Below are positions 13,646 through 13,837 of a stretch of 64,000 bases of DNA, piece by piece (the stretch's first letter is position 1; the number at the start of each line of letters is the position of its first letter). The stretch comes from Escherichia coli. Lineage in GTDB: Bacteria > Pseudomonadota > Gammaproteobacteria > Enterobacterales > Enterobacteriaceae. The stretch lies in assembly GCF_003334765.1 (NCBI RefSeq), contig NZ_QOWT01000022.1; one strand, 5' to 3'. The notes below the pieces were generated by a model. The model saw nothing but the letters and a program-made list of their open reading frames with translations. It was not told where the DNA came from and did not search any database. The position numbers and the translations under genes were made by a program.

Positions 13646-13837
13646 ATGCTTGGTAAGGTATTTTTTGTGGTTTTGTCATGTTCTTTGTTATTAAACCCAC
13701 TAACTACCTATGCTAGAAATTATCCCTGCTCAGGGAAAAAGGGAGGTGTTTCTCACTGTACCTCAGATGGCAAATTCGTTTGCAATGATGGAACTATTAG
13801 TAAATCCAAAAAAATCTGTACTAAAAACTCACGATAA
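13646..13837 (+). CDS. Small secreted cysteine-rich protein (63 aa) between cI and int; candidate moron
   Basis: Signal-peptide-like N-terminus [23 protein letters not shown], then about 40 residues with four Cys. Confidence 0.45.

Follow-up and report, generated by a model that had tools for sequence, protein, structure and literature searches.

A YdcA-family gene between the repressor and integrase genes of a 186-like Escherichia coli prophage encodes a strongly constrained, probably periplasmic four-cysteine protein

The 63-amino-acid (aa) open reading frame (ORF) lying between the CI repressor (cI) and integrase (int) genes of a 186-like prophage, within the 64,000-nt stretch of E. coli DNA analyzed here (hereafter, the window), is a genuine protein-coding gene, and its product is, on sequence models, a catalogued member of a named, functionally uncharacterized family, YdcA (PF27300/NF007463), and no orphan. 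The gene being already catalogued, the novelty of the present findings is limited to its role, and the class to which it belongs is that of lysogenic-operon accessory genes for exported proteins. It is important to note what makes such a gene worth attention: a 40-residue, probably periplasmic protein, nearly invariant across prophages of several genera and tied to the immunity repressor, carries no function in annotation, and the slot that it occupies is one where anti-phage genes are found. That is, the protein is a candidate periplasmic exclusion factor that lends itself to testing, the gene being already present in E. coli B/BL21.

The window represents E. coli chromosome with a 186-like (Peduoviridae) prophage, the int end of which abuts rcdA and ybjJ. 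The features of the locus, in the coordinates of the window, are the following:

12712..12915, minus strand: apl/cox-like gene, the first of the divergent lytic operon (67-aa ORF; position as apl of phage 186)
12916..13060, no strand assigned: switch region, the presumed site of the lytic and lysogenic promoters (by analogy with 186 and HP2)
13061..13630, plus strand: 186-type CI immunity repressor with a GTG start (PGAP, "phage repressor protein CI")
13635-13640, plus strand: Shine-Dalgarno (SD) sequence GGGAGG, 5 nt 5' of the ATG of the peptide gene (read from the sequence)
13646..13714, plus strand: predicted signal peptide, codons 1-23, with predicted cleavage after T-Y-A (hydrophobicity profile, family alignment)
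13715..13837, plus strand: mature YdcA domain of 40 aa with four Cys, and the stop codon (NF007463, PF27300, dN/dS, AF2 model)
13838..14025, plus strand: non-coding spacer of 188 nt before int, the last ~78 nt of which belong to the int module and include the int SD
14026..15102, plus strand: tyrosine integrase of the P2/186 type, the last gene of the lysogenic operon (PGAP, "phage integrase"; homology)

The 63-aa ORF opens with ATG and occupies 13646..13837 on the plus strand, exactly where a previous reading of the same DNA from its letters alone (the sequence-only reading) had placed it, with cI at 13061-13630 and int at 14026-15102 as its flanks. For both flanking genes the mechanically called ORF is extended at the 5' end (12974..13630 for cI and 13870..15102 for int), and the GTG start at 13061 and the ATG start at 14026 are each backed by an SD sequence and by homologues; the int gene of a 100%-matching reference genome ends 24 nt short of the end of the window ORF. 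Loci homologous to the window cI carry the Pfam domains Phage_CI_repr and Phage_CI_C, and the 67-aa apl/cox-like ORF, which in identical genomes is flanked by the CII and CI genes, is annotated there as a hypothetical protein. In the records of 186 and HP2, pR and pL lie between, or overlap, apl/cox and cI; the corresponding switch region of the window shows only weak matches to the promoter consensus.

The previous suggestion that the gene is placed for expression from the lysogenic transcript is borne out by this anatomy. Because the gene is on the same strand as cI, starts 15 nt after the cI stop (which ends at 13630), has its own SD sequence and is followed by no terminator-like site on the plus strand between cI and int, its co-transcription with cI in the lysogen is strongly suggested. 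A search of 12600-15300 against Rfam returned no element. A promoter-like sequence, TTGACA-17-GAAAAT, at 13973-14001 (10/12 matches), just 5' of the SD and ATG of int, might serve as int's own promoter, but such sites are no commoner here than in shuffled sequence. GC content is 35-38% for cI (38%), the peptide gene (~38%) and most of the spacer vs. 49% for int and cII. The int modules of Klebsiella and E. coli phages resemble the window only from 13948 onward, 78 nt 5' of the int ATG, a position that places a mosaic junction within the spacer. The sequence-only reading did not expect a gene at this position in 186 or P2, and rightly so: the cI stop of 186 overlaps the start of int, and C and int of P2 are separated by 115 bp of non-coding DNA. 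Since neither phage has a gene there, the YdcA-family gene constitutes an insertion relative to both.

The product has the layout of a small exported protein, as was anticipated from the letters. Its N-terminus consists of Lys4 followed by a hydrophobic core at residues 5-16 (Kyte-Doolittle values up to 2.8) and T-Y-A at positions -3 to -1, with predicted cleavage before Arg24, a small residue at -1 and no lipobox, and the Ala at -1 (Ala23) is invariant in an alignment of 28 relatives. These features and the family alignment strongly suggest a Sec-type signal peptide. The remaining 40 aa, with a pI of 9.7, hold nine Lys/Arg vs. two acidic residues (both Asp), for a net charge of about +7, and four Cys at positions 28, 38, 46 and 58; a fifth Cys (position 12) is inside the signal peptide. 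A lipoprotein of the T5 Llp or phi80 Cor kind, with a lipobox and an invariant Cys at +1, was considered and rejected, given that V-L-S-C12 is only 11 residues from the N-terminus and Cys12 is absent from most relatives. Alternative frames at 13710..13862 (plus strand) and 13821..13913 (minus strand) were also set aside, the substitution pattern fitting the 63-aa frame. From its sequence, the mature protein would reside in the periplasm, and nothing suggests that it crosses the outer membrane. Accordingly, the word "secreted", used of it previously, holds as far as export is concerned but not for passage beyond the periplasm.

The family assignment is supported by several collections. The window protein scores 115.8 bits against the whole-protein model NF007463 of NCBIfam (curated cut-off, 93), matches PHROG 6000 at 1.9e-34 and, by precomputed annotation, its 98%-identical cluster representative and its relatives carry the Pfam domain PF27300, "YdcA". 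It falls below the cut-off of a second NCBIfam model, NF007462 (57 positions), which we take to represent the chromosomal YdcA. A scan against a copy of Pfam-A that does not include PF27300 gave only a spurious match (0.11), and the NCBIfam search additionally gave a weak match to the Legionella lpg1681 family (E 0.11). The protein is named "YdcA family protein" (WP_000900883.1) by RefSeq/PGAP in identical genomes and "hypothetical protein" in older annotation; the UniRef name of its cluster is "Conjugal transfer protein". In the literature that we searched, no function was given for the YdcA family, and nothing relevant was found for ydcA together with prophage or with DsbA.

In a core alignment of 46 diverse YdcA domains, C4, C14, C22, S28 and C34 are invariant and P3, S5, G9, G10, G25 and S30 are conserved at 90% or more; the window sequence has every one of the conserved core positions, including the motif CSGxKGG...FxCxDGxxSxSK...C. 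The mature part is also the part on which selection acts. Compared with the 94%-identical allele of strain ACN002, it shows nine synonymous changes and one non-synonymous change (dN/dS about 0.02), and, compared with the 58-69%-identical alleles found in further prophages of Escherichia, Klebsiella and Yersinia, it has saturated synonymous sites but only 4-7.5 non-synonymous changes on about 90 sites. In the signal peptide, dN is comparable to dS and hydrophobicity is kept. There is, therefore, strong purifying selection on the mature part and drift in the signal peptide, and a mature sequence that is conserved behind a leader that evolves freely but stays hydrophobic is what would be expected of an exported protein with a tightly constrained mature part.

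The gene is widespread. The identical protein sequence occurs in more than 1000 contigs, and the gene was found in 648 of 5426 complete E. coli genomes (about 12%, or roughly one in eight), E. coli B among them. E. coli B ATCC 11303 (L184 3059..3250) and the BL21-lineage strains T7Express and BAP1 have the same order of cI, ydcA-like gene and int by rcdA, with the R24K allele (WP_001321204.1). When the repressor type and the peptide gene were counted separately in complete E. coli genomes at a coverage of at least 80%, the two counts were 657 and 628, respectively. Further, all 80 near-identical loci from IMG/VR have an intact ORF with its ATG always 15 nt after cI, and only three single-residue alleles, while the identity of the CI protein in these same loci falls to 85%. 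The survey of related prophages that had been proposed as a check found the order cI, ydcA-like gene, int in Escherichia, Klebsiella and Yersinia prophages (in some of them with a KAP NTPase gene, discussed below, before int), where the repressor is of the 186 type and the signal peptides are unrelated, and also in Haemophilus phage HP2. The latter has an unannotated 60-aa homologue that lies downstream of the mapped pL and whose ATG begins on the final base of the cI stop codon, and 16 HP2-like viral contigs repeat this arrangement. Taken together, these results suggest that the peptide gene is part of the immunity cassette, an AT-rich module inherited with the repressor.

Could the sequence matter only in cis, as a translated spacer that tunes int expression and whose product has no function of its own? 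The position between cI and int in one operon and the coupling of the HP2 start to the cI stop are what such an element would show. However, purifying selection acts on the mature amino-acid sequence and not on the signal peptide, the domain is found in many contexts that have nothing to do with int, and 186 and P2 manage without the gene. We therefore regard this explanation as barely credible.

A related layout was observed elsewhere. In three loci (L104, L123 and L127, at ~4986..5627), a protein of 208-213 aa with an N-terminal YdcA domain and a C-terminal domain without assignment is encoded directly 5' of a P2-type integrase gene, with a LexA/lambda-CI-like repressor gene and a 174-aa ORF further upstream; that is, the operon logic is the same and the immunity type is different.

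What other phages keep in this slot bears on function. Phage vB_EcoM-813R9, which uses the same rcdA site, encodes there a 558-aa ATPase that matches the PD-Lambda-1 model at 400 bits (L087 822..2498). In other prophages, the KAP NTPase gene that follows the YdcA-family gene, starting 12 nt after it (L089-L094 4198..5529), matches the candidate system PDC-S20 at 570 bits. The slot of Vibrio phage K139 holds orf2 and glo, the record of which annotates Glo as periplasmic and involved in phage exclusion, and a 2026 preprint describes the integrase-primase interval as a minor defense hotspot of P2-like prophages. Hence, other Peduoviridae place lysogen-protecting cargo in the cI-int interval. The peptide itself matched none of the families of PADLOC-DB 2.0.

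A different possibility is that the prophage simply provides its host with a fitness benefit, i.e., that the gene is a moron acting as an extra, constitutive copy of an envelope or stress protein equivalent to YdcA, with a role in tolerance to acid, organic acids or envelope stress that is unrelated to phages or DNA. E. coli K-12-type genomes indeed have a resident ydcA paralogue outside any prophage, between cybB and hokB and near ydcI, a location that suits a general envelope or stress function, and the phage and chromosomal copies can be aligned over the whole length of their mature domains. One paper (PMC7642389), which refers to ydcA as a gene of unknown function, reports that an E. coli W ydcA deletion is sensitive to 300 mM 3-hydroxypropionate and cites YdcI-dependent induction of ydcA at pH 5. 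However, the 3-hydroxypropionate phenotype represents a single report and is suppressed by deletion of yieP, and the fitness explanation leaves unexplained the nearly 1:1 association with a single repressor type, the anti-phage slot, and the repeated acquisition of the gene by unrelated phages and small plasmids as well as its fusions to nucleases (below). We consider a host-fitness role of this kind rather unlikely, if worth keeping in mind.

Structural comparison provided an anchor outside the family. [quoted passage not shown] The small fold of the YdcA model is shared by each Dis2 lobe, with a TM score of 0.70, an rmsd of 1.7 A and 42% identity over 36 columns (probability 0.97); a fold search of AFDB50 returned only family members with uninformative names. 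In sequence comparisons, hhalign gave YdcA vs. Dis2 a probability of 79.6%, and pairwise BLASTP against the two Dis2 lobes gave 5e-6 and 4e-4. The profile match in the PDB sequence search had an E value of 2.7e-5 with the signal peptide included, a value inflated by the alignment of the latter, and one of 0.059 with the core only, which is level with chance matches to Cys-rich proteins. Because of this weak core-only match, the link to Dis2 rests mainly on the fold and on the presence of PF27300 in the Dis2 homologue P0228 (precomputed annotation). The YdcA domain is probably, on the model and the sequence profiles, a single-lobe form of the Dis2 repeat, and this kinship lends support to a periplasmic site near the outer membrane and to two disulfides. 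The latter were also proposed by the sequence-only reading and are probably present in the mature protein: the four Cys are invariant or nearly so in the family, and the matching lobes of Dis2 have disulfides in the cryo-EM density. The literature on Dis2 (PMC12716638, PMC8486379) describes this protein as Legionella-specific, with structural neighbors not found, and we did not find a link to YdcA stated there.

Dis2 binds to lipoproteins near the outer membrane (DotK, DotC and DotD) rather than to the channel, and deleting it causes only subtle effects; this favors a protein-adaptor role over DNA binding. One explanation that follows this lead is an adaptor for envelope machines: a protein that docks, Dis2-like, onto outer-membrane lipoprotein complexes or trans-envelope machines without contacting nucleic acid, so that any effect on phages or on the host would be indirect, e.g., through an altered receptor or secretion/uptake apparatus. 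That Dis2 is the best and only convincing structural match speaks for it, and the extreme conservation of the mature sequence across genera suggests a specific, conserved partner; some of the domains to which YdcA is fused in other proteins (DUF4124, the PBCV basic adaptor domain and a VasL domain of type VI secretion systems) point the same way. Yet the prophage neighborhood has neither a T4SS nor any other machine, and the fusions to four unrelated nuclease folds fit more simply with a nucleic-acid-related or general anchoring role. Overall, a pure adaptor of this sort seems unlikely to us.

These fusions emerged from a profile search of 1.84 billion cluster representatives, which yielded 472 clusters at an E value of 0.001 or lower, the best 150 of which were listed. 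Nearly all of the members among these best 150 consist of a signal peptide followed by a single domain of ~34 residues with a mean net charge of +3.6 (the window copy being at the top of the charge range of the family), and many extend into Lys/Ser/Pro-rich tails. A Pfam scan of 35 longer members revealed, in addition to the three partners mentioned above, fusions to Endonuclease_NS (three), SNase (one), PLDc_2 (one) and, weakly, HNH, with the YdcA domain at the N-terminus and each fusion recorded as a single gene on its contig. Nuclease fusions account for about 7 of the 150 listed cluster representatives and are thus a minority. One of them, YdcA-SNase (L183 3001..3669, on a JGI metagenome contig of 37.6 kb), comes from a P2-like phage in which its neighbors are gpD, gpU and the tape measure gene, and is a candidate phage-carried exported nuclease. 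Family members of about 105-150 aa were also seen to have a second Cys-rich, basic module at the C-terminus, CxCRSGxxCTGPRGGxYCxxxSGxKSY, which corresponds to the PBCV-specific basic adaptor domain of Pfam.

Stand-alone copies occur at other typical accessory sites of unrelated phages as well: behind the tape measure gene, in the interval from the sheath gene to the tape measure gene, behind Gam and an exonuclease, and behind Ant, where a DUF4236-like membrane protein often comes next. YdcA-family genes are also present on plasmids, including the mobilizable (MOBQ) plasmid pApiMCR53a of Acinetobacter pittii, which has 3916 bp and five genes and where the gene (L100 728..904) is beside a gene named "TraD"; this neighbor may be the source of the UniRef name mentioned above. 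On Acinetobacter- and Moraxella-type viral contigs, a DUF4236-like protein is repeatedly encoded 3' of the YdcA-family gene (L132 5187..5513, L137 5175..5492, L146 5181..5498 and L155 5168..5581, among others). It begins MGFNFRKSxKIAPGVRxN..., ends in a C-terminal membrane helix and belongs to PHROG 8279, and small lipoprotein-like ORFs come next, so that the whole looks like a recurring islet of envelope proteins.

The breadth of these contexts also bears on whether the peptide is toxin-like, as the sequence-only reading had suggested alongside lysogenic conversion. A cationic, disulfide-stabilized peptide, released to harm competitors or host cells in the manner of a bacteriocin, would agree with the small, Cys-stabilized architecture and with prophage encoding. 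Against this, there is no immunity, processing or export gene between cI and int and no route through the outer membrane, the paralogues are ordinary chromosomal genes, the domain is also a module of enzymes and of a T4SS subunit, and no toxin family was matched in Pfam, NCBIfam, PHROGs or the PDB. Therefore, while an accessory gene of the lysogenic-conversion type is a fair label, we consider a secreted toxin very improbable.

Our preferred hypothesis, which we advance tentatively and with confidence that stops short of even, is that the gene encodes a lysogen-expressed periplasmic factor protective against incoming foreign DNA or superinfecting phage. Four lines of evidence suggest this reading: the apparent expression with the repressor in the lysogen; a slot that otherwise holds exclusion and defense genes; the repeated capture of the gene by phages and mobilizable plasmids; and the fusions to four nuclease superfamilies, together with the basic, Gly/Lys/Ser-rich surface and a relative in a machine that translocates DNA and protein. 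According to this model, the peptide gene would be transcribed with cI from the lysogenic promoter, as the anatomy of the locus suggests, and its product thus made continuously in the lysogen; the pre-protein would be exported, lose its Sec signal peptide and be oxidized in the periplasm to form its two disulfides; and it would then protect the lysogen from within the cell envelope, its Gly/Lys/Ser-rich surface perhaps binding a phosphate-rich or otherwise anionic target, this activity being the weakest step of the model. Such a target might be DNA on its way across the periplasm or, alternatively, outer-membrane-proximal protein machinery that conducts DNA. The lack of any PADLOC match and the minority status of the nuclease fusions (again, about 7 of the 150 listed) count against the protective role.

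A bolder version of the same idea, which we consider doubtful, is that YdcA is a hitherto unrecognized extracytoplasmic mini-domain that binds DNA or other phosphate-rich polymers, common to Dis2 (considered Legionella-specific to date), four superfamilies of exported nucleases and the stand-alone genes of phages and plasmids, and that the prophage copies are single-gene periplasmic systems of superinfection or entry exclusion. If this were true, about 12% of E. coli genomes, with E. coli B/BL21 among them, would have such a new exclusion system. Independently of which version is favored, the links to Dis2 and to nuclease fusions provide a first structural anchor and a concrete hypothesis for the YdcA family, including ydcA of K-12 and Dis2 itself.

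Comparison with known systems places the window protein among several partial counterparts. The first is the chromosomal YdcA of E. coli (b1419-type; PF27300, and the PRK10040 models NF007462/NF007463), which belongs to the same family and has the same architecture of a signal peptide and one four-Cys domain of ~35 residues; the two proteins have in common the motif PCSGxKGG[VI]xHC...GKF[VI]CNDG[ST]xSxSKKxC. The window copy differs in its signal peptide, in being more basic and in being prophage-borne within a lysogenic operon, as opposed to the cybB-hokB region. Dis2, a periplasmic, disulfide-stapled subunit of the outer-membrane cap, has in each of its lobes a motif shared with YdcA (C-x-K-x-GG-[IV]-x-x-C ... 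VCN[ND]G-x-x-S), but it is built of two tandem lobes, with five disulfides and additional Cys, and is a stoichiometric T4SS subunit bound to its three lipoproteins, whereas the window protein is a single 40-residue domain with only prophage regulatory genes, and no T4SS, in its neighborhood. IdeA/SxnA of Vibrio ICEs and Dns of the Campylobacter prophage CJIE1 are element-encoded periplasmic nucleases that degrade entering DNA (PMC12378983). Some YdcA proteins resemble them, the domain being joined N-terminally to an Endonuclease_NS, SNase or PLD nuclease (in one case in a P2-like phage), but the window protein has no catalytic domain, and the likeness is therefore one of a possibly shared target and not of membership. 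Finally, Glo of phage K139 differs in its length (137 aa), in not being Cys-rich and in being preceded by orf2, and homology to it was rejected (pairwise BLASTP E value of 0.10 over 30 residues); nonetheless, as a small exported protein encoded at the cI-int position, in the lysogenic operon of a Peduoviridae phage, Glo represents the best functional precedent by position for the protein described here.
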